Assembly: GCA_035247945.1 (NCBI GenBank)
Contig: DATFHX010000019.1
Location: forward strand, 3,808-67,807
Origin: Candidatus Saccharimonadales bacterium
GTDB taxonomy: Bacteria; Patescibacteriota; Saccharimonadia; Saccharimonadales; Saccharimonadaceae
Direction: 5' to 3'
DNA length: 64,000 nucleotides
Numbering within the stretch: position 1 is the first letter of the stretch; every line of letters starts with the position of its first letter. The translations under genes were made by a program, and so were the position numbers. Of this stretch, positions 8,519 through 63,220 are shown one piece after another. Under the pieces are notes generated by a model. The model was given only the letters and a program-made list of their open reading frames with translations. It searched no databases and had not been told where the DNA came from.

Positions 8519-8595
8519 GGCAGCGTAGCTCAGTCGGTTAGAGCGTAGGACTCATAAGCCTAAGGTCACTGGTTCGATCCCAGTCGCTGCTACCA
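8519..8595 (+). tRNA. tRNA-Met (CAT), elongator type
   Basis: Cloverleaf folded by hand: GGCAGCG/CGCTGCT acceptor, GCTC/GAGC D-stem, loop CTCATAA, ACTGG/CCAGT T-arm with TTCGATC, CCA encoded. No initiator signatures. T-arm and acceptor resemble classical elongator tRNA-Met. TATAAT at 8497-8502. Confidence 0.88.
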
Positions 8596-23506: not shown

Positions 23507-23584
23507 CGCGGGGTGGAGCAGTCTGGTCAGCTCGTTGGGCTCATAACCCAAAGGTCGTAGGTTCAAATCCTACCCCCGCAACCA
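23507..23584 (+). tRNA. Initiator tRNA-fMet (CAT)
   Basis: CGCGGGG...CCCCGCA acceptor with C1xA72 mismatch. Anticodon stem ends in three G:C pairs (TTGGG CTCATAA CCCAA). T-loop TTCAAAT. CCA encoded. Confidence 0.92.
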
Positions 23585-25446: not shown

Positions 25447-25522
25447 GGGGGCGTAGCTCATCGGTTAGAGCAGGCGGCTCATAACCACTTGGTAGTTGGT
25501 TCGATTCCAACCGCCCCCACCA
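25447..25522 (+). tRNA. tRNA with CAT anticodon, most likely tRNA-Ile2 (lysidine-modified)
   Basis: GGGGGCG/CGCCCCC acceptor. The anticodon arm AGGCGGCTCATAACCACTTGGT closely resembles the classical tRNA-Ile2 arm (AGGCGACUCAUAAUCGCUUGGU), with one C.A mismatch in the stem. TATAAT at 25431-25436. CCA encoded. Confidence 0.8.
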
Positions 25523-40003: not shown

Positions 40004-40921
40004 CTAGAAGATGCCGCGCTTTCGGCCAATTGCAAATACCAAAAAGACGATTGCCAGACTAAAGAGAAGGATGACGAAATACACCCACTGTTCGTGTTGG
40101 AACGGAAGGCCTACATTCATGCCGTACATGCCGTAGACTACGTTAGGGAGTGCGATAAGGACAGTAAGCACCGTCAGTGTCTTCATGCGCATATTGAGGA
40201 CGTTATTTGCGATTGTCCCGTAGGCATTACGGATACTGAGCACGCTTTGGCTGTAACTCTCTATTGCAACCAGAAGCTGACGAATATAGAGGAGGATATC
40301 GTCAATTGCCTCGGTATGTCCATTTCCGTATTCTGTACGGAGGCGTTCTGCTACGACAAGCATTGCAGCTAGATTCATCTTATATTCGTTAAGGTTATCT
40401 TCTACAGTTACAAAGCGAATAAAGTCGTCGTTTGTTACTTCATGTGAGCGAAGGCGTCTTCCGGTGTCGTGTATATTCTGCGCTGTATGCTGCATGAGGA
40501 ATTCATAATCACTAAGGATAGACACAAACGTAGCGAGCAGGAGTCCTACACTGTCATCGAGGTGCTGTGCGACACTCTGATGTGTTGATGCCGTGCTTGG
40601 AGTCTCACGTGATGATAACGTCGCAAACACTGACCCTCTCACAGCGAGAAGGACCGGTGCGGTTGAAGCACGCCCATGCTTATCTCGTTGGATTGTCCGA
40701 ACAAATACATAGGTGCCGTCATTCTTCTTTTCAACTCGCGGGAGCTCATGAGCATCTAGAACATCTCTCAGGATATTAATATCCAGCGTGTAGGTCTTTG
40801 AGAGCATCTGGAGATCTGCATCGTCAACGTGATCACCACGAATCCACACCTCCCCTTCAGGTGGAGATGCGATCGCCTGGAACTCCTCACCGCGGCTCCG
40901 TCGAATAAAGTACCGAATCAT
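40004..40921 (-). CDS. corA: CorA-family magnesium/cobalt transporter
   Basis: C-terminal two TM with YGMNV (GMN motif). ATG at 40921 within the ORF open to 40969. Confidence 0.85.
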   Translation of the reverse strand: MIRYFIRRSRGEEFQAIASPPEGEVWIRGDHVDDADLQMLSKTYTLDINILRDVLDAHELPRVEKKNDGTYVFVRTIQRDKHGRASTAPVLLAVRGSVFATLSSRETPSTASTHQSVAQHLDDSVGLLLATFVSILSDYEFLMQHTAQNIHDTGRRLRSHEVTNDDFIRFVTVEDNLNEYKMNLAAMLVVAERLRTEYGNGHTEAIDDILLYIRQLLVAIESYSQSVLSIRNAYGTIANNVLNMRMKTLTVLTVLIALPNVVYGMYGMNVGLPFQHEQWVYFVILLFSLAIVFLVFAIGRKRGIF

Positions 40922-40962
40922 TACATTAGCAGTATACCGTGTTTTAGAAGGTGTGCCTATAT

Positions 40963-40994
40963 AAAACACCCCAGATTGATATCTGGGGTGTTTT
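40963..40994. terminator. Hairpin terminator after the MFS gene
   Basis: 14-bp perfect stem aaaacaccccagat/atctggggtgtttt. Confidence 0.65.
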
Positions 40995-43066: not shown

Positions 43067-43984
43067 CTATCGTTTACGCATGAAGTAGATAATGAGAATT
43101 AATGCCGCAATCGCACTCCCCCCTACAATGAGCCAAAATGCGTATGGTGAATGTGGATCACCTGGAAGTACGACGTTCATACCAAAGATCCCCGCCATCA
43201 TGGTTGGAATCGTCATCGCAAGGGTAATTACGGTGAGGATTCGGATCGTTTCGTTAAGGCGCGTGTCCATGACGGCGCGGTATGAATCTCGCACGTTCGT
43301 AATAGTACGAAGCAGGCTCTTACATCGCCCGACGAGCTGTTCAAGATCAATCGAAAGATCTTCGACAAGATCCCTATCATCTTCGTAGAGACGGATCATT
43401 TTTCCGCTTAGAAGTTTCTCAAGGGCAATGTTCATTGGAATTAACGCATCGGTGTAATCGTTAAGTTTTCGCTCATATTCAACAAATGTCGCGATGTCTT
43501 TCGGACGAAGATTCACCACGTCCGTTGACGCTGCGCGCATCTGCCTATTAATTGCTGCAACCCGTGTCTGGTATTGGCGGACAATGGCATCAACCATCAC
43601 CATAAAGAACTTCGTCTTCTGCGTTGTTGGAATGGTTGTTCTATCTATAAATGGCTGCCACATACGACCGAGCGGATCACGGCTTACTGTCACGATATGC
43701 TCTTTGCCAAGCGCAAAGAGCATTGGCGTGGTGAAGTCATTGAAATCGTCATCGGTGTCGGGAAGACGGGTGAAGAAATACGTCCACTCGCCGTCTACTT
43801 CAATACGAGGCACTTCGTGAGGGTCGAGTGCATCGCTGAGGATATCCTCATCAAGCCCAAGCTCAATGAGTGTTGCGAGCTCTTCTTCCTGTGGCTTCTC
43901 AACACGAACCCAACTTCCCGGCTGCAACGTATCTCGCTCTTTTATTTCTGGTCGGTGGTGCGTAGAGCGAAGAACGGTAATCAT
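43067..43984 (-). CDS. corA: CorA-family magnesium/cobalt transporter (second paralog)
   Basis: 305 aa. GIFGMNV (GMN) plus two C-terminal TM. Confidence 0.85.
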   Translation of the reverse strand: MITVLRSTHHRPEIKERDTLQPGSWVRVEKPQEEELATLIELGLDEDILSDALDPHEVPRIEVDGEWTYFFTRLPDTDDDFNDFTTPMLFALGKEHIVTVSRDPLGRMWQPFIDRTTIPTTQKTKFFMVMVDAIVRQYQTRVAAINRQMRAASTDVVNLRPKDIATFVEYERKLNDYTDALIPMNIALEKLLSGKMIRLYEDDRDLVEDLSIDLEQLVGRCKSLLRTITNVRDSYRAVMDTRLNETIRILTVITLAMTIPTMMAGIFGMNVVLPGDPHSPYAFWLIVGGSAIAALILIIYFMRKR

Positions 43985-56163: not shown

Positions 56164-58299
56164 TTACAGTAATCGTTCGGCAAGATTGCGGCGGCGAATG
56201 GTAAGGATTACGGCGCTCATCGTCAGGATGATTGACGCGATTCCACCGATGAGCAGTGCATCACTACCTGTCGATGCGAGTCCACCATTCCAAGGGTCAC
56301 CAGTTGTCGTATCTGTTGTACTACCACCCGTATTCGTCGTAGGAGCACTTTGGCTGACGAGCGTGACCTTAACATTTGCAGCATCACACACGGTTGGATC
56401 TGCGTTAGCGCAGGTAACATATCCGAGGCTGTAGGTACCCGCTGCAGTGCTCGCTGCAACCGTCACATCACCTGAGCCTTGGATCGTAATGCCTGGTTCA
56501 AGCGATTCCGATGTAAGCGTAACTGCTCCGGCTGACATAGGTTGACCATTTATGGTATCGTTTTCGAAGACGTTCCCCGCGGTGCCTCCCCCAACATTCA
56601 TCTGGTACACATCATCATTCGCGGAGACAGTCGTTATCTGTGAGTTACCCGTACCACGTAAGATAAGTGTTATATCTGCGTTGGCACAATTTGTTGGAAG
56701 TGAATTCTGACAAAGATTGTAGTGGAGCGCGTAGGTCATTCCACCGGGGGTTGTTGCAGGAATGACAAGGTTACCATTTGCGTCGACACTTGCCCCAGTT
56801 ATACCACCGTTATTCGTAATTGTAGCCGTGTACTTCGTTGGGTCGATTGGTTGACCATTTGCTGAGTCATTAATGATGATACTTCCTAGGTTTGTGTCAC
56901 CTTCGTCTGCGATAAAGTTATCGTTATTTGCAACAAGTGTTACAGGTGGAACGCTTGTCACAGTTACCGTGACTGTTGCAGGATCACAGTGCCCTGGAAC
57001 TGCTACCTCACAGATCTGATACGGCACAGTATAGGTACCGGGAGCAAGCGTTGAAGGAACTGTAATGTCTCCATTAGGGGCGATCGTAATCCCTGTTGAA
57101 CTTGGGTCTTGGTAGGATAACGTCACTGTGCTCGTTGTTGCTGGTGCATTATTCTGCGTGTCATTAGTAAGCGCATTACCGACAACACCCCCCGCTCCCT
57201 GTACAGTACTAAATGAATCGTCATTGGCATTAAGTTCCGTTGGAGGGGTGTAGCATTGAAGTCCTCCGACAGTACCATCCATGGTCGCATCCGCTTGGAG
57301 TGGCATAAGGTCAAGCCCAAGGATTTCGATGTCAGGAAGTAATGGAACCGGCTGGAAGACGCGGACTGACAGTACAGAGACAGACCCACTTGCGTGTGAT
57401 CCATCTGCAGCCTGGGTAATCGTTGGATTGTTAAGTGTAACAGTTATTTGTGGTGTCAGGCCGGCAAGTCCGAGTCCTACGGTATTTACTGTAATTGACT
57501 GACCAAGACTGAGTGGCTGCCCTGCAACCGTCACGGTTGGTGCGGTATAGGTTGCGGAAGCTCCGCCAGGCAGTCCCGATGCCTGTGCAGTTATTGTAGG
57601 TGTACCACCCACCGTTATAGGCACGCCGGCTATCGTTAGAGAGTTAACTGATGCGGATGCTGTCGACACGAGTTTGCGCTCGTCGTTCGCCCCACCCGTC
57701 GGAAGCAGCGCTGTCTTTGAATCTGTTGCTAAAAGCTGTGCATTAATAAGACTGATAACGCCTAGATTAGCAACACTAAGGTTTGTCGCACTCGTTGCAC
57801 TACGTGAAAGCGTGTTCGCAACACAGGCAGTATCGCTCGTCCAGTTAGCCTCTGAATTCACTGTCATAGCGTTCATTGCAAGAAGTGGGTTTGCCCCTAG
57901 TGACGCTAACGAATTGTTATCTGCGGTGCCCGGAGGCGCAACACTATGTGCACCAAGAAGGAGCGGGCTGATATCGAGGCCAATTACAGAACCCCCTAGG
58001 TTATGTGCATCCGCTACTGTTCGTGGAGACGACGCTGTATTTGCAGACGTTGCAGCTGGTTCTACCTTTAGGCCCGCCACATTAAAGGTAGCAATCTGCA
58101 GCGTATGAATATCAAGCAGTGTCGCATTGCTGCTTCCGCTATACGCTACCGGCGGCAGCGCAGCCAGCGCCTGCTGTGTCGCATACCCCGATCCAGCAAG
58201 CACAAGTCCTGCAACCGTTCCCGCTGTCATGAATCGTAGTGCCTTTTTGTAGGTACCACGAAAAGCCACTAATAATCCTCGCACATTTGTTCCTCGCAT
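56164..58299 (-). CDS. Wall-anchored surface protein with three about 95-aa Ig-like tandem repeats
   Basis: The ORF is open to 58320. The second ATG (58299) follows AAAGGAG. Signal peptide ...ATQQALA. Three repeats N(D/N)D.(F/Y)......G....N.L.ND..NG.P..........P.G.YT..Y..C......C..A.V.V.(V/L). C-terminus LASTG + TM + RRRNLAERLL. Confidence 0.82.
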   Translation of the reverse strand: MRGTNVRGLLVAFRGTYKKALRFMTAGTVAGLVLAGSGYATQQALAALPPVAYSGSSNATLLDIHTLQIATFNVAGLKVEPAATSANTASSPRTVADAHNLGGSVIGLDISPLLLGAHSVAPPGTADNNSLASLGANPLLAMNAMTVNSEANWTSDTACVANTLSRSATSATNLSVANLGVISLINAQLLATDSKTALLPTGGANDERKLVSTASASVNSLTIAGVPITVGGTPTITAQASGLPGGASATYTAPTVTVAGQPLSLGQSITVNTVGLGLAGLTPQITVTLNNPTITQAADGSHASGSVSVLSVRVFQPVPLLPDIEILGLDLMPLQADATMDGTVGGLQCYTPPTELNANDDSFSTVQGAGGVVGNALTNDTQNNAPATTSTVTLSYQDPSSTGITIAPNGDITVPSTLAPGTYTVPYQICEVAVPGHCDPATVTVTVTSVPPVTLVANNDNFIADEGDTNLGSIIINDSANGQPIDPTKYTATITNNGGITGASVDANGNLVIPATTPGGMTYALHYNLCQNSLPTNCANADITLILRGTGNSQITTVSANDDVYQMNVGGGTAGNVFENDTINGQPMSAGAVTLTSESLEPGITIQGSGDVTVAASTAAGTYSLGYVTCANADPTVCDAANVKVTLVSQSAPTTNTGGSTTDTTTGDPWNGGLASTGSDALLIGGIASIILTMSAVILTIRRRNLAERLL

Positions 58300-58326
58300 A
58301 AAACTCCTTTTTCCTCGCATAAAAAA

Positions 58327-58352: not shown

Positions 58353-58552
58353 CAAAAAACCTCTACTTCGATAATAGAACACTCATTGCCTGCGCGCAAC
58401 GCCCAATTTCAATGCATTATTTTCTCGCCACCTCAGTAGCTTCTCGAGACTAAAAATAGCAATGGCTTGCTATCTCGTAGAACCACGTCGTTAAGCTAGC
58501 ACCTTTACTCTCTGGCGTAATACCCCATAGCCAACTTGCCGCTCTTTACAGA

Positions 58553-59074
58553 TTACTCTGCAATTTGTCTGTTAGTGGCGCGAAGATGCTTTTTGAAATG
58601 TCTCATAATCTCCGGACCAAATAGTGTGCCATCCTCAGCAAGTGCATTGGCTAATACTTCATCCCAACCCCACATCCTTTGCCTCATCTTCCTACTCCAC
58701 GACCGACGATTAAAAGAGCTTACGTACATCATTCCAATACCTTCAACATTCCCAATCGCTGCCGGGCCGATACTTCCAATATCAGACCAATAAATGTGCT
58801 TATGAAAAACACCTAGGAACGTTACGTGTACGCCAGCCGTATCAATTTGGTAGTAGACGAGTCTCGGTATGGAAAACAGAAGAGAGAAAATTATTAAAGC
58901 GGGAAAAGCGAGTGATCCATAAAGCATTACAGTCCTAACTGTTTCGTTTCGCAGCCCCGAGGCATATAGAACAGTCGTAACAAACATGAGGAGTATAGGG
59001 AGCAGCGTTGATAGTTGTTTTAATGTATCTTTGGAATTCAGATAGTACTTTGGGGAGGAAGATTTAACGGCCAT
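58553..59074 (-). CDS. Hypothetical membrane protein
   Basis: 173 aa. Two N-terminal TM followed by a soluble domain. Confidence 0.6.
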   Translation of the reverse strand: MAVKSSSPKYYLNSKDTLKQLSTLLPILLMFVTTVLYASGLRNETVRTVMLYGSLAFPALIIFSLLFSIPRLVYYQIDTAGVHVTFLGVFHKHIYWSDIGSIGPAAIGNVEGIGMMYVSSFNRRSWSRKMRQRMWGWDEVLANALAEDGTLFGPEIMRHFKKHLRATNRQIAE

Positions 59075-59145
59075 TTCTTATATCATAACAGAGTGCGCGA
59101 TCTCCGAAGAGAGTCCACGATACTATGTATACAACCCTAGCATAG

Positions 59146-59180
59146 AAAAAATCCTTAGCTAAGTTAACTAAGGATTTTTT
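59146..59180 (-). terminator. Terminator after tRNA-Asn
   Basis: atccttag/ctaaggat stem flanked by A6/T6 runs. Confidence 0.6.
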
Positions 59181-59182
59181 CA

Positions 59183-59257
59183 TGGCTCCGGCAGCTGGGC
59201 TCGAACCAGCGACCTAATCGTTAACAGCGATCCGCTCTACCACTGAGCTATGCCGGA
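59183..59257 (-). tRNA. tRNA-Asn (GTT)
   Basis: The reverse complement folds as TCCGGCA/TGCCGGA acceptor, GCTC/GAGC D-stem, loop CTGTTAA, GCTGG/CCAGC T-arm with TTCGAGC. CCA encoded. Confidence 0.92.
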
Positions 59258-59306
59258 ATACTGGGAGTATTATACACGTTTCTAGCGATTCCCGTCAAGG
59301 GGTACT

Positions 59307-59330
59307 GCTCGGCCGGTTTGCCGGCCGAGC
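59307..59330 (-). terminator. GC-rich hairpin after 59339..60016 (no U-tract)
   Basis: gctcggccgg-tttg-ccggccgagc. Confidence 0.55.
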
Positions 59331-59338
59331 GTCTCACA

Positions 59339-60016
59339 TCACACCTGGTAGTAGCCGCTCCCGTACGAAGCGACCTTGATCCGCTCAATCGGTTTACAGA
59401 CAAGGCTACCATTGGATGGGTCATAGAGGGTACAGTGACGGGAATCTTCTGGAATTGCCAGAAGGGTGTGCACCGTTCCACCTACTGCGAGTTCTGAACA
59501 GAAGACGAAACACCCGTCGAGGAGCATTCGCTTGAAATCGACTTGCGTTGCATATCCTTCCTGAATATCGATCTGTCCCTTGAACTGACGACGGATTTGT
59601 ATTTGTATACGCGCCGCCTCAACCAGGTCCGAAAAGAAATACGGAAGATCGAATTCGATCTCCACCTCAGTTCGCCCCATCTGCCTCCAGAACGCTTCGA
59701 CCTTTTTCAAGCCGTCGGGCCCGACGATCTCTTCGGGCCGGATTGGGGACTTCGCTTTCAGGTGAAGTCCATGCTCTAGAAGGAGCCTCATGTTGCCATA
59801 CTGCATGTCGGGCTGATATGCACGACGACCGATTCGCCTATCGAGGCTCAGTACTTGATTTCGCTCGATTTTACCGAGCATATAGAGAATCTGCGCCGTA
59901 CAGGCTGTTTCGCAGGCCATCGCATCCCACTGCACTAGTGGAAGTGGTGCTCGCATCGCTACACTACCATCCTCTCGTACGCTTTTGAGACATTCAGGAT
60001 TATAGAGGAGTATCAC
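59339..60016 (-). CDS. Papain-fold cysteine peptidase-like protein (C39-like domain), tentative
   Basis: Gln-x5-Cys in VQWDAMACETACTAQILYMLG, and His...Asp-Pro in GGTVHTLLAIPEDSRHCTLYDPSNG, echoing the C39/papain Q-C-H-D layout. GTG at 60016 overlaps the upstream TGA (GTGA). The alternative start is ATG at 59956. GC moderately elevated. Confidence 0.5.
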   Translation of the reverse strand: MILLYNPECLKSVREDGSVAMRAPLPLVQWDAMACETACTAQILYMLGKIERNQVLSLDRRIGRRAYQPDMQYGNMRLLLEHGLHLKAKSPIRPEEIVGPDGLKKVEAFWRQMGRTEVEIEFDLPYFFSDLVEAARIQIQIRRQFKGQIDIQEGYATQVDFKRMLLDGCFVFCSELAVGGTVHTLLAIPEDSRHCTLYDPSNGSLVCKPIERIKVASYGSGYYQV

Positions 60017-60441
60017 GCTTCGGGCAATGCTTGGATGGCTTGCTTCTGCGCTTCGTACTCTTCTTGGTAGCCAAGGATACGCAGCGATTCGACAAGTATT
60101 TGAAGATCTTCAATTCCCTCTTTAGAGGGGTTATCCTTGTGAGTTTTGATGGTTTTAGACAGCTTTTCCACTAACCAGGTTGGTTTGTCCTCAGTTTTCT
60201 CCTGTTTATCCACAACTTTTCCACTTGTTTTCACCACCTCAAGTGAACGAGCAGATCTGTCGCGCTTAATGAGATGTCCACCAGCGATGAGTCCATCTAT
60301 ATGCACAGCAACCGTTGAGACTGACTTGTAGTCGAGGGCACGCATAATCTCCCGGTAACTTGGACCGTAGCCATTGCCCCGGATAAACCCATCGATGTAA
60401 GCGAGCAGTTCAAACTGTTTTTTACTCGGTCTTTTTTGCAT
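60013..60441 (-). CDS. LexA-type winged-helix DNA-binding domain protein lacking the S24 autoprotease domain
   Basis: KKQFELLAYIDGFIRGNGYGPSYREIMRALDYKSVSTVAVHIDGLIAGGHLIKRDRSARSLEVV matches the LexA N-terminal domain. The C-terminal about 70 aa are K/E-rich helical with no Ser-Lys dyad domain. ATG at 60441. Confidence 0.75.
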   Translation of the reverse strand: MQKRPSKKQFELLAYIDGFIRGNGYGPSYREIMRALDYKSVSTVAVHIDGLIAGGHLIKRDRSARSLEVVKTSGKVVDKQEKTEDKPTWLVEKLSKTIKTHKDNPSKEGIEDLQILVESLRILGYQEEYEAQKQAIQALPEA

Positions 60442-61720
60442 ACATACCCTCCTTACTAAGTGCCACTGCGGCAAGCCCCCACCAAATAATCGAGACAGTA
60501 TCGTCTACCCATACTGGCTGTAGGAGGCCTACGATTCCAATACCTATACCACTCGCCAATACGCCAAGCGCTACCCAATCGGATCGGGTATGCCATAGTC
60601 GTTTGATGATGAGAATAAATAGTGCGAGAAAAATAACGAGGCCGAGCCACCCTACCTCATGAGCAATGAAGAGATACTGATTCTCGATAACAAGTGGGTG
60701 CGCTCCTTGCAGCGAAGCCGAGCCAGTGCTTCCAATGCCTGCGCCGAGTGGCTGTTGAAGCATAAGGCGAAGCCCATCGATAAGTGACGATGCGTGTTGC
60801 TCGTCAGATGTAACCGAAGCACCAGTACTTGCTGAGTTATGGAGAATGACATTCGATACAAAGTCTGACTCGCGTACGGCATATACAACCCCTGCTCCGA
60901 TAAGAAGTACTGCAACACCAGCTCCCCACACCCAGCGGTTCACTGCTTTTCCGTACCGCATAAGTGCTACTACCGCGGCACCGATAAGCGCCGCAATAAG
61001 CGCACTCCTTGAGTAAGTTACCCAAAGAACAACCAGACTTCCAAGCCCCAGAAGGAATGCAAGCAGTTGATTACGGCGCGAAGTGATCTTCCCTCTTACC
61101 CATAGAGCAAAAAGCATGACGAGGATAATTACTGTGTAGATGCCAAGGGGATTCGGACCACGCAGCGTGCTGTTGATACGGATGAATGCGGGATTGTCGT
61201 CTACAGTTAGATACGGGGCGATTGTATGAGACCCGTAGCCAATATGCGTGAGAATATCCGCTGGAAGAAAGAGTTGGAGCACTCCAAAACTAATCACTAT
61301 TCCCGCACCAATTAGCCCAACCCTAAGGAAAAGCTTTCTATACTGCGGCGTAATTCGAAGGAGCCCGTAAACAAGTGTGAAGAAAAATGTATAGCGAAGA
61401 TCGACCGCAAGGCCAGCGAGCGTCGGCGCACTCCCCTGGTACAGTAGCGCGAGTAGAATAAAATGCATCACCGCGTAGCCGCCGAGAAACCAGATGATGG
61501 GATCTTTTAGAAAGTGCCTCCAAGCATGGTTCTGAGATACATAGAGTATGGCGACTGGAATGAGTAGCGCCATAAGGATTTCTTTCCATGACTTAAGCAG
61601 TAGGTCGTAGGTGGGAAACTGCGTTCCTAGAAATACCGTAAGCGGCGCATGCAGCACTATGAGCCCAAAGATAACAAGCAGGCCTCCGGCATAGACACGC
61701 CCTAGTAGTGAACTTATCAT
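60422..61720 (-). CDS. O-antigen ligase/polymerase-like (Wzy_C family) membrane protein
   Basis: Polytopic, with ...WVTYSRSALIAALIGAAVVAL... typical of the family. ATG at 61720 chosen to avoid overlapping the divergent gene. Confidence 0.75.
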   Translation of the reverse strand: MISSLLGRVYAGGLLVIFGLIVLHAPLTVFLGTQFPTYDLLLKSWKEILMALLIPVAILYVSQNHAWRHFLKDPIIWFLGGYAVMHFILLALLYQGSAPTLAGLAVDLRYTFFFTLVYGLLRITPQYRKLFLRVGLIGAGIVISFGVLQLFLPADILTHIGYGSHTIAPYLTVDDNPAFIRINSTLRGPNPLGIYTVIILVMLFALWVRGKITSRRNQLLAFLLGLGSLVVLWVTYSRSALIAALIGAAVVALMRYGKAVNRWVWGAGVAVLLIGAGVVYAVRESDFVSNVILHNSASTGASVTSDEQHASSLIDGLRLMLQQPLGAGIGSTGSASLQGAHPLVIENQYLFIAHEVGWLGLVIFLALFILIIKRLWHTRSDWVALGVLASGIGIGIVGLLQPVWVDDTVSIIWWGLAAVALSKEGMYAKKTE

Positions 61721-61762
61721 GGTTACTAGTGTACTAGATAAAATGGTATAATAGCAGTACCT

Positions 61763-63220
61763 ATGCCATCCAAGAACACCAAGCTGTATAGTTTGTTCCT
61801 CATTATTGCCGATTTTGTCATCTTGCTTCTGGCGTTTACCATCGCGTATATTCTCCGCGTGCAGCACGACCCACGTCCGCTTCTAAGTCCTGTTTATGCA
61901 CAGGACTACCTTATTAGCTTCCTTCTCATTGTCCCTATCTGGATCCTTATCTTTGCTGCTCTCGGGCTTTACCATTCAAGTGTCTATAACCGACGTCTTG
62001 TGGAGTGGAGTAAGATTGCCATTGGCTCTTTCATTGGAATTCTTGTCATTATTGGCTGGGAATATGTCAGCGAAGAACACATATTCCCCGCTCGCCTTGT
62101 GGCTGCCTACGCGCTTGCTGGTGCCTTTATTATGATCGTCCTAGAGCGTGAGATCCTCCGTATAACCCGAAGTCTTATGTTCTATTTTGGACGAGGCATT
62201 AGTAATGTTCTTATTATTGGCGATAGCGATGCAACTAGAGATATTGCCGATAATCTTGCCGAGACTCACAAGAGTGGCTACCGCATCGTTGCAGTTGCGG
62301 GACCTAAAAAAGTAATTCCACCCGGCCTTACTGTCCAACACTTCTCTTCGTTTGAAAAAGCACTCTCTCATATCAAGCAGCTTGGCATCACGACAATTAT
62401 CCAAACCGACCTTTATGATTCAGCCGAACGAAACCAGCAGATTCTTGGTGCGGCGCAGGTAAACCATATTCGCTATAGTTTCATTCCTGGTGAGCCCGAA
62501 TTCTATACGGGTAAAAATACTGTCGATGTTTTTCTAGGCTACCCTATGATTTCTGTGAGCCAAACACCACTCATTGGGTGGGGCGGCATCGTAAAGCGGC
62601 TCTTTGATCTCATCGCCACTTCCATTATCGTAATCGTTCTCTCGCCCGTTTTCTTACTCCTTATTATTCTCCAAAAGATACTCAATCCTGGCCCTATCTT
62701 TTATGCTGCAAATCGCCTCACGAAGGGAGCGCAGCCATTTGGCATGCTTAAGTTCCGGAGTATGCGTCCTGAATTTGGATCGAAGGATGCAGTACAGGAT
62801 TTTATCGATATGGGGCTTCCGGAGCTCGCGAAAGAATATGAAAAGAACCGTAAAATTCTCAGCCAGCCAGATCCACGTATTACCCCATTTGGACATTTTA
62901 TCCGCAAGACATCACTCGATGAACTTCCTCAATTCTTTAATGTCCTAAAGGGCGACCTAAGCCTCGTTGGACCCCGTCCTATTGAACCAATTGAGCTGCC
63001 TCGCTACCGTGACCGTGGCGCGCTCCTTCTCAGTGTCCAATCGGGGATTACCGGACTTTGGCAGGTTTCCGGACGAAATAGTCTTTCCTTTGATCAGCGC
63101 GTTGAGCTTGAACTCTACTATGCACAAAACTGGAGTTTCTGGATGGATATAAAGATTCTCCTTAAGACACCAGGTGCGCTACTAAAACGACGAGGAGTAC
63201 CAGGCACAGATGGCAAGTAA
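61763..63220 (+). CDS. Polyprenyl-phosphate sugar phosphotransferase (WbaP/bacterial sugar transferase family)
   Basis: 485 aa. N-terminal TM bundle. KRLFDLIATSIIVIVLSPVFLLLII, MLKFRSM, DELPQFFNVLKGDLSLVGPRP. Extended -10 TGGTATAAT at 61744-61752. Confidence 0.9.
   Translation: MPSKNTKLYSLFLIIADFVILLLAFTIAYILRVQHDPRPLLSPVYAQDYLISFLLIVPIWILIFAALGLYHSSVYNRRLVEWSKIAIGSFIGILVIIGWEYVSEEHIFPARLVAAYALAGAFIMIVLEREILRITRSLMFYFGRGISNVLIIGDSDATRDIADNLAETHKSGYRIVAVAGPKKVIPPGLTVQHFSSFEKALSHIKQLGITTIIQTDLYDSAERNQQILGAAQVNHIRYSFIPGEPEFYTGKNTVDVFLGYPMISVSQTPLIGWGGIVKRLFDLIATSIIVIVLSPVFLLLIILQKILNPGPIFYAANRLTKGAQPFGMLKFRSMRPEFGSKDAVQDFIDMGLPELAKEYEKNRKILSQPDPRITPFGHFIRKTSLDELPQFFNVLKGDLSLVGPRPIEPIELPRYRDRGALLLSVQSGITGLWQVSGRNSLSFDQRVELELYYAQNWSFWMDIKILLKTPGALLKRRGVPGTDGK

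Follow-up and report, generated by a model that had tools for sequence, protein, structure and literature searches.

A LexA-type DNA-binding protein without its autoprotease, encoded directly beside a small papain/C39-like protein, raises the question of whether the two form a repressor and its dedicated protease. The two genes, referred to here as the LexA-like regulator gene and open reading frame 2 (ORF2), lie on the minus strand of a stretch of 64,000 nucleotides (nt) from a Candidatus Saccharimonadales bacterium (assembly GCA_035247945.1, contig DATFHX010000019.1, positions 3,808 to 67,807), hereafter called the window. Saccharibacteria are epibionts with reduced genomes and very few recognisable regulators. 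To our knowledge, the repressor-inactivating switches described to date all use either a self-cleaving S24 domain or an ImmA/IrrE metalloprotease. An earlier note on this DNA had interpreted the pair as a split, translationally coupled switch.

The analysis described here leans, with modest confidence, towards two independent neighbouring units, namely a non-cleavable regulator that is tied to the operon of a Wzy-like membrane protein and an accessory cytoplasmic cysteine peptidase. The evidence does not support a split switch, although one is possible, and each of the two pieces is a new variation on a known kind. The result mainly corrects the reading of an attractive but over-interpreted gene pair.

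The LexA-like regulator

The regulator gene (60013..60441, minus strand) encodes a protein of 142 amino acids (aa). Residues 6-65 match the Pfam model PF01726 (LexA_DNA_bind) with E=3.4e-9 and 36.8 bits (gathering cut-off 23.7). The lexA equivalog model TIGR00498 is matched only at model positions 5-72 of 203, with 38.4 bits against a cut-off of 110.95, from which it follows that the S24 half is absent. An AlphaFold2 (AF2) model built from 35 homologues consists of a winged helix-turn-helix (wHTH, residues 7-69), a disordered linker (73-84) with a predicted local distance difference test score (pLDDT) <50, and three helices (88-137). In a Foldseek search, the head was placed on LexA DNA-binding domains, which were the best matches at a probability of 1.0, with 28% identity and a root-mean-square deviation (rmsd) of 1.6 Å for Thermotoga maritima LexA (3k2z). 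Across ~70 residues, the rmsd values for 3k2z and E. coli LexA (1lea) range from 1.3 to 1.8 Å. The whole protein has only a loose likeness to repressors of the MntR/DtxR type, which combine a wHTH with a helical dimerisation domain.

The winged helix and the missing S24 domain that had been read from the sequence alone were thus both confirmed, the latter by the partial TIGR00498 match and by the three helices that form the C-terminus instead. In addition, no Ala-Gly self-cleavage site was found in linker residues 70-88. Having neither the S24 domain nor the Ala-Gly site, the protein belongs to the LexA_DNA_bind domain family and not to the LexA repressor family.

In total, 3817 homologues were found, of which the best 120 are all 138-154 aa long and carry PF01726 as their single Pfam domain; the protein is therefore not a one-off truncation. 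Their alignment shows hardly any variation in the DNA-binding domain and conservation of the C-terminal helices, with a variable linker in between. The relatives are named 'repressor LexA', 'LexA family protein' or 'hypothetical' in their source records (Candidatus Saccharibacteria), and a literature search returned no publications on LexA-like proteins of Saccharibacteria. The protein, which is conserved throughout the Saccharibacteria, is most likely a housekeeping-type regulator. Its linker contains the sequence SGKVVDK, an instance of a motif [S/G]-G-[K/N]-x-V-[E/D]-K that is present in all five regulators adjacent to an ORF2 homologue; of the 120 closest homologues, 26 have it.

Predicted fold and catalytic residues of ORF2

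ORF2 (59339..59956, minus strand) encodes 205 aa from a conserved ATG at 59956. No significant match was obtained in Pfam, NCBIfam, PADLOC, PHROGs or the PDB sequences. The AF2 model, for which an alignment of 62 family members was used, has a pLDDT of 95.6 and a predicted template modelling score of 0.91. A Foldseek search of the PDB returned, with a probability of 1.0, the C39 domains of PCAT1 (7n87/6v9z), ComA (3k8u) and LahT (6mpz) as well as the toxin protease Cpe1 (9l5u). The target-normalised template modelling scores for the C39 domains lie between 0.55 and 0.69, the highest value being that of ComA. Among the lower matches were CtaG (9qvl), a CdiA-CT domain, the Tse1 amidase and deubiquitinases, while a viral structure library gave papain-like matches only.

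The arrangement of Gln-x5-Cys, His and Asp-Pro described in the earlier note was found again, with Q9, C15, H163 and D179 counted from the ATG (Q29, C35, H183 and D199-P200 from the GTG assumed earlier). In the model, C15 is the first residue of helix 15-26, H163 opens strand 162-169 and D179 closes strand 174-179, and the spacing is Q9-x5-C15 and H163-x15-D179, the last two being 16 residues apart. The catalytic triad of ComA consists of Cys17, His96 and Asp112 (PMC5481443). Since both the residue order and the His-Asp spacing of 16 equal those of ComA, the placement of the catalytic set fits C39. The predicted structure accordingly supports the papain/C39-like fold with an intact catalytic set that had been proposed. 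A weak alignment with the endoisopeptidase PeiR also sets the His and Asp-Pro of ORF2 onto the matching PeiR motif.

Unlike C39 domains, ORF2 contains a helical insert of ~50 residues (82-124). Below the significance threshold, Pfam models were recognised in some of the 62 relatives: C39 in two (E about 0.07), C39_2 in one, and also C70. These hints and the PeiR alignment agree in their direction. Neither a signal peptide nor an HEXXH motif was found in ORF2. By structure and motif, ORF2 belongs to the papain/C39 fold class; it is not a member of Pfam C39, as the matches to that model stay below threshold, no transporter is attached and the helical insert is extra. Compared with the 86%-identical copy in locus L001 (the loci compared are numbered L001 to L021), the ratio of non-synonymous to synonymous substitution rates is 0.12, and ORF2 is thus under purifying selection.

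Extent of the ORF2 family and loss of catalytic residues

A word-indexed homologue search returned only 3-6 relatives of ORF2, so that an exhaustive profile search was needed. This yielded 86 clusters at 50% identity, of which 39 have E<1e-10 and nearly all are 200-225 aa long. A metagenome scan with the family added just four further loci. The only return of a scan of genome contigs with the family pattern was a match on a Filomicrobium contig, which is dubious (31% over 48 residues) and was discarded. Judged by these searches, ORF2 represents a family of about 86 clusters that occurs on Saccharibacteria-type contigs only. As the models of Pfam, NCBIfam, PADLOC and PHROGs all fail to match ORF2, the family is regarded as undescribed.

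In 62 family members, both Cys and His are present in 34, neither in 23 and only one of them in five (Fisher p=1e-11, uncorrected for phylogeny). That the two residues are kept or lost together is what a catalytic pair would show if family members had decayed to pseudoenzymes repeatedly. The 23 members without both residues still keep Q22, L24, G63 and P180, and ORF2 of the window keeps all four of Gln, Cys, His and Asp. Longer family members have low-complexity N-terminal extensions only, and no 'Rosetta stone' fusion of a LexA DNA-binding domain with ORF2 was found among them.

Some distant relatives lie next to genes of DNA repair, convergent with uvrB in two lineages (L011:2615-5267, L013:2641-5294) and divergent from radA in another (L014:886-3000). 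The helical insert matched RecX weakly (3d5l, E=0.019) with a 12-sequence profile but with no other, and this was taken to be noise. If the LexA-type neighbour of ORF2 is counted as well, three weak hints at DNA-damage genes result, none of which is significant alone.

Start codon and promoter-like site of ORF2

The coupling of the two genes had been deduced from the TGA of the regulator gene, which overlaps a GTG assumed to be the start of ORF2. The GTGA is present at 60013-60016, but translational coupling through it was rejected because the overlapping GTG is not conserved. In L001, the regulator gene ends with TAA, so that no GTG is available there, and a 2-nt indel breaks the supposed extension of 20 codons. 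All ORF2 homologues start with MRxP, which corresponds to the ATG at 59956 in the window. This conserved start leaves a spacer of 56 nt between the LexA-like gene and ORF2, inside which a Shine-Dalgarno-like motif (GAGAGG) is located. Readthrough of the single in-frame stop codon that separates the two genes in L001 was considered as well and rejected; the shared frame is due to chance, as the frames differ at other loci.

A sigma70-like promoter for ORF2, TTGCCC-17-TATAAT, straddles the stop codon of the LexA-like gene (59999..60027, minus strand). Promoter-like sequences are located at the same place in L001 (TTGCCT-17-TATAAT), L003 (TTGACA-16-TATAAT), L007 (TTTACA-16-TATACT) and L010 (TTGTCA-16-TAAAAT), so that, with the window included, five lineages have such an element where the regulator gene ends. 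From its upstream sequences, ORF2 appears to be transcribed at least partly from its own promoter. Since no terminator was found in the spacer of the window, read-through from the LexA-like gene into ORF2 would also be possible.

Gene order across lineages

In all nine lineages examined, the same order is conserved: the GT1 and Bac_transf genes run in one direction, Bac_transf being the nearer, and the Wzy-like gene, the LexA-like gene and tRNA-Asn follow in the other. The Wzy-like and LexA-like genes overlap by 4-44 nt in each of the nine; in the window the overlap is 20 nt (60422-60441), as had been stated before. What differs is the slot between the LexA-like gene and tRNA-Asn. An ORF2 homologue occupies it in the window, in L001/2, in L003/15/16 and in L006/7, while L004/5 have an unrelated 281-aa protein there, which in L004 was checked as a possible relative of ORF2 and rejected. 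The slot is empty in L008, L019, L020 and L021, where the tRNA gene lies 20-69 nt past the stop codon. In L010, an ORF2 homologue is located directly 3' of the regulator gene and the contig ends before the position of the tRNA.

When six LexA-like loci were fetched via the regulator alone, ORF2 was found in one of them, tRNA-Asn directly after the regulator gene in four and an unrelated gene in one. Likewise, five of the ten distinct contexts of the ORF2 family do not adjoin a LexA-like gene. These are the relatives in L018 (behind an HD-domain gene), L017, L011-L013 (uvrB) and L014 (radA), each of which has its own, unrelated promoter-like upstream sequence, and relatives with intact Gln, Cys and His occur far from any LexA-like gene. 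The earlier note had made its proposal depend on an adjacency that is conserved in related genomes, and the counts speak against this. With the adjacency not conserved, a promoter-like site of its own in front of ORF2 and the overlapping start not conserved, the translationally coupled split switch was not upheld.

In a rough tree of the Wzy-like and LexA-like proteins, ORF2-bearing loci are interspersed with empty ones. Because of this mixed distribution, the pattern of the slot would fit an old occupant that was lost repeatedly, or else repeated gains.

In comparison with L001 (5512-5946), the synonymous distance of the LexA-like gene is ~3.2 and saturated, whereas that of ORF2 is 0.67; the protein identities are 83% and 86%, respectively. 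In a sliding identity comparison of the same two loci, no part of the block had diverged more than the Wzy-like and LexA-like genes (0.65-0.77). The difference in synonymous distance therefore reflects fast-evolving Wzy/LexA-like DNA and not a foreign origin of ORF2. Horizontal transfer of ORF2, considered on the basis of guanine-cytosine (GC) content and divergence, was rejected: the GC content is within the local range and the nucleotide identity with L001 (0.80-0.90) is like that of Bac_transf.

The divergent promoter region and a possible envelope link

The Wzy-like gene (60422..61720, minus strand) encodes a Wzy_C/O-antigen-ligase-like membrane protein of 432 aa (PF04932, E=1.5e-9), the start codon of which (ATG 61720) was chosen via an alignment of orthologues. 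Divergent from it and part of the same conserved block is a gene for a Bac_transf-type initiating sugar transferase (61763..63220, plus strand), whose orthologues in L001, L004, L007, L008 and L019-L021 carry PF02397. The region between them (61721..61762, no strand assigned) was compared in six loci and is almost identical among lineages whose proteins are just 50-60% identical. It contains TGGTATAAT on the Bac_transf side, TAGTACACT on the Wzy side and the palindrome CTAGTACACTAG at 61726-61737. The first two are back-to-back -10-like elements at distances of 10 nt and 7 nt, respectively, from their ATG codons, and these distances suggest that the Bac_transf and Wzy mRNAs are leaderless or near-leaderless.

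An operator search gave no regulon signal for the LexA-like regulator within the window: there is one exact copy of CTAGTACACTAG, the near-matches are at chance level, and no motif is common to 61721-61762 and the upstream regions of ORF2, uvrB or radA. The conserved region may be regarded as a candidate binding site of the regulator, by inference only. As an alternative to the switch, regulation of envelope genes had been mentioned in the earlier note. This fits the LexA-like gene better than a split switch does, since the gene overlaps the Wzy-like gene in every lineage examined.

Interpretation and alternatives

Starting from the observed folds, motifs, gene order and conservation pattern, we infer dimerisation of the regulator, the location of its operator and the peptidase activity of ORF2. 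Under two independent units, the regulator would be made from the same mRNA as the Wzy-like protein, the stop and start codons of the two genes overlapping. Its three-helix C-terminal domain would most likely serve for dimerisation, and the regulator, being without self-cleavage, may bind the divergent region between Bac_transf and Wzy (61721-61762) and tune the surface-glycan genes. ORF2 would be a stand-alone cytoplasmic peptidase that is expressed at least partly from its own promoter and whose gene sits in the variable slot flanked by the regulator gene and tRNA-Asn. In catalysis, Cys15 would act as the nucleophile and His163 as the base, with Asp179 orienting the His and Gln9 forming the oxyanion hole.

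Several observations weigh against this interpretation. The two genes are adjacent on the same strand in the window, L001, L003, L007 and L010, with a spacer of 47-59 nt and no terminator, down to ~30% identity of ORF2, and such adjacency outlasts the usual span of random synteny; where the slot is empty, ORF2 might be encoded at another place in the genome. All five regulators of these loci share the linker motif within an otherwise variable, disordered linker, where it could be a recognition or cleavage site. Moreover, the operator is a candidate only, Foldseek gives ORF2 E-values of a modest 4e-3 to 1e-2, and none of the sequence models matches ORF2 significantly. The adjacency and the motif would be explained if ORF2 cut the regulator in its linker and thereby freed the DNA-binding head from the dimerisation domain, so that the targets are de-repressed. 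The layout of the regulator, with DNA-binding domain, disordered linker and small C-terminal domain, suits such a switch, C39 enzymes cut after small-residue pairs of the Gly-Gly type (Cpe1: PMC12136450), and some distant ORF2 relatives are located beside uvrB or radA. However, the slot is empty or otherwise filled in five of the nine LexA-like lineages, the regulators of L004, L008 and L021 bear the motif without an ORF2 in the slot, and half of the ORF2 contexts are without a LexA-like neighbour. Translational coupling is absent, a separate promoter-like site precedes ORF2, ~40% of the family members are without Cys and/or His, fusion proteins were not found in the family, and the residues before the SG do not fit the hydrophobic pattern at -4/-7/-12 of double-glycine leaders. 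Cleavage in trans is therefore considered unlikely, and the same small probability is given to its narrower form, in which, within one Saccharibacteria clade, the C39-like ORF2 attacks the linker of the S24-less regulator at [S/G]-G-[K/N]-x-V-[E/D]-K. Equally improbable is a purely regulatory link, in which ORF2 is a target of the LexA-like regulator, with an operator over the ORF2 promoter, and not its protease. Regulators often control adjacent genes, and in five lineages the regulator gene carries the promoter-like site of ORF2 at its 3' end, but the ORF2 promoter region shares no sequence with the conserved Bac_transf/Wzy intergenic region, and ORF2 relatives elsewhere have unrelated upstream regions.

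The other alternatives concern the function of ORF2 itself. With its papain fold, ORF2 might be an acyl- or amidotransferase or an amidase (BtrH, CtaG, arylamine N-acetyltransferase, transglutaminase-like), or it might mainly bind peptides without catalysis, as C39-like domains in some ABC transporters do. Foldseek also finds CtaG, the Tse1 amidase and deubiquitinases, the residues Q22, L24, G63 and P180 that are kept in the 23 members without Cys and His point to a conserved binding or scaffold role, and the helical insert is absent from C39 domains. On the other hand, the top structural matches are true peptidases, the predicted geometry and the spacing of Gln, Cys, His and Asp match C39, and the PeiR alignment, although weak, pairs His and Asp-Pro with the motif of a peptidase; a function other than that of a peptidase thus has a limited chance, which is small but not negligible. 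A toxin like Cpe1 with a neighbouring immunity gene is very improbable. It is suggested by the top Foldseek match, the Cpe1/Cpi1 entry 9l5u, whereas ORF2 has no delivery domain of a type VI secretion system (T6SS) or of contact-dependent inhibition (CDI), no N-terminal extension and no signal peptide, no partner gene is conserved across the ORF2 contexts, catalytically dead members are frequent and PADLOC gave no match.

A regulator with a nearly invariant LexA-type head that is tied to a Wzy-like gene throughout the class is an entry point to the control of the envelope, which is the interface of Saccharibacteria with their host. With the ORF2 family, which consists of uncatalogued cytoplasmic papain/C39-like proteins, the C39 fold gains a stand-alone branch, and the repeated loss of its catalytic residues makes it a useful case of enzyme-to-pseudoenzyme turnover. 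If cleavage in trans were true after all, it would constitute a third mechanistic class of repressor-inactivating proteases, driven by a cysteine protease.

Features downstream of ORF2 and further observations

A GC-rich hairpin with a 10-bp stem and a CAAA loop (59307..59330, minus strand; folding free energy -23.6 kcal/mol, z=-3.2) is located 8 nt 3' of the ORF2 stop codon and has no U-tract. It had been described before as lying near tRNA-Asn, and this is the case. The tRNA-Asn gene (59183-59257) and its own promoter-like site TTGACG-18-TATAAT (59298..59269) together span 59183..59298 on the minus strand and form the conserved downstream edge of the variable slot. The GC content of ORF2 is 52.8%. 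The LexA-like gene has 46.4%, the window as a whole 48.5%, the Wzy gene 49.9% and the gene of a 718-aa protein further downstream 50.7%. The earlier statement that ORF2 is more GC-rich holds in relation to the LexA-like gene but not to the similar Wzy and 718-aa genes, so that the difference is marginal.

The 718-aa protein (56164-58320, minus strand) has no Pfam match and its C-terminus consists of LASTG, a hydrophobic segment and RRRN. By these features, it is probably a large surface protein with a sortase-type cell-wall anchor. Just past tRNA-Asn, the window (58387-59183) does not align with positions 6773-8056 of L001, its 80%-identical relative; a 173-aa membrane protein is encoded in the window, and genes for 127 aa and 208 aa are located there in L001. 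This stretch is a second variable spot beside the tRNA gene.

Directly after the tRNA-Asn of L019 (L019:4481-8456; GCA_009612935.1, WBZM01000016.1), genes for an ABC-F-type double-ABC protein, an APH-family phosphotransferase and a large serine recombinase are located, which looks like an integrated element with resistance-type cargo in a Saccharibacteria genome. The contig of L008 (GCA_033792395.1, JARAUW010000001.1, 957,675 bp) is filed under Streptomyces caniscabiei and carries the Saccharibacteria-type block of GT1, Bac_transf, Wzy, LexA-like gene and tRNA-Asn, and it is as large as Saccharibacteria genomes usually are; it is probably the genome of an epibiont inside a Streptomyces assembly. 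Elsewhere in the window, three tRNA-Met (CAT) genes lie inside 17 kb (8519-8595, 23507-23584 and 25447-25522), and two paralogues of a CorA-type Mg2+ transporter (43067-43984 and 40004-40969, minus strand) are found 2 kb apart with a major facilitator superfamily transporter between them.

Comparison with known systems

The regulator resembles the LexA of E. coli and Thermotoga (PF01726 + PF00717, TIGR00498) in its N-terminal winged helix and in the sequence of DNA-binding domain, linker and C-terminal oligomerisation part. LexA, however, has an S24 Ser-Lys autoprotease and an Ala-Gly site, where the regulator of the window has a three-helix bundle of 50 residues. Furthermore, LexA is encoded by an autoregulated SOS gene, whereas the regulator gene described here overlaps a Wzy-like gene.

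With the C39 domains of ComA (the peptidase domain, 3k8u), PCAT1 (7n87/6v9z) and LahT (6mpz), ORF2 shares the papain-like fold, the Gln six residues before a Cys at the N-terminus of a helix, the His and Asp on neighbouring strands at a distance of 16 residues and the helix motif C-x3-C ... Y-M-x-G. Those domains sit in ABC transporters, while ORF2 is stand-alone and cytoplasmic and has the extra helical insert of ~50 residues. No ABC transporter was found in any of the ORF2 contexts examined and no gene for a double-glycine leader peptide nearby. Cpe1, the top structural match of ORF2 (9l5u), is a small papain-like interbacterial toxin protease that cuts cytoplasmic proteins at double-glycine motifs (PMC12136450). 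ORF2 differs from it by the lack of a T6SS or CDI delivery domain and of a conserved immunity partner, and by its many dead relatives.

The logic proposed for the pair, a non-self-cleaving HTH repressor beside a dedicated protease, is that of ImmR-ImmA (ICEBs1) and DdrO-IrrE/PprI (Deinococcus). In those systems the repressor is paired, with strict conservation, with a zinc metalloprotease of COG2856, whereas ORF2 has a cysteine-protease fold and its pairing with the regulator is facultative. Proteins that are like the regulator in having a winged helix and a short tail are known from phages, namely the S24-less mini-proteins with a LexA DNA-binding domain of phrog_3502 (E=1.9e-12) and phrog_24920 (E=1.2e-6). 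The match to these covers the DNA-binding domain only, and the regulator of the window is, in contrast, chromosomal and syntenic across a bacterial class.

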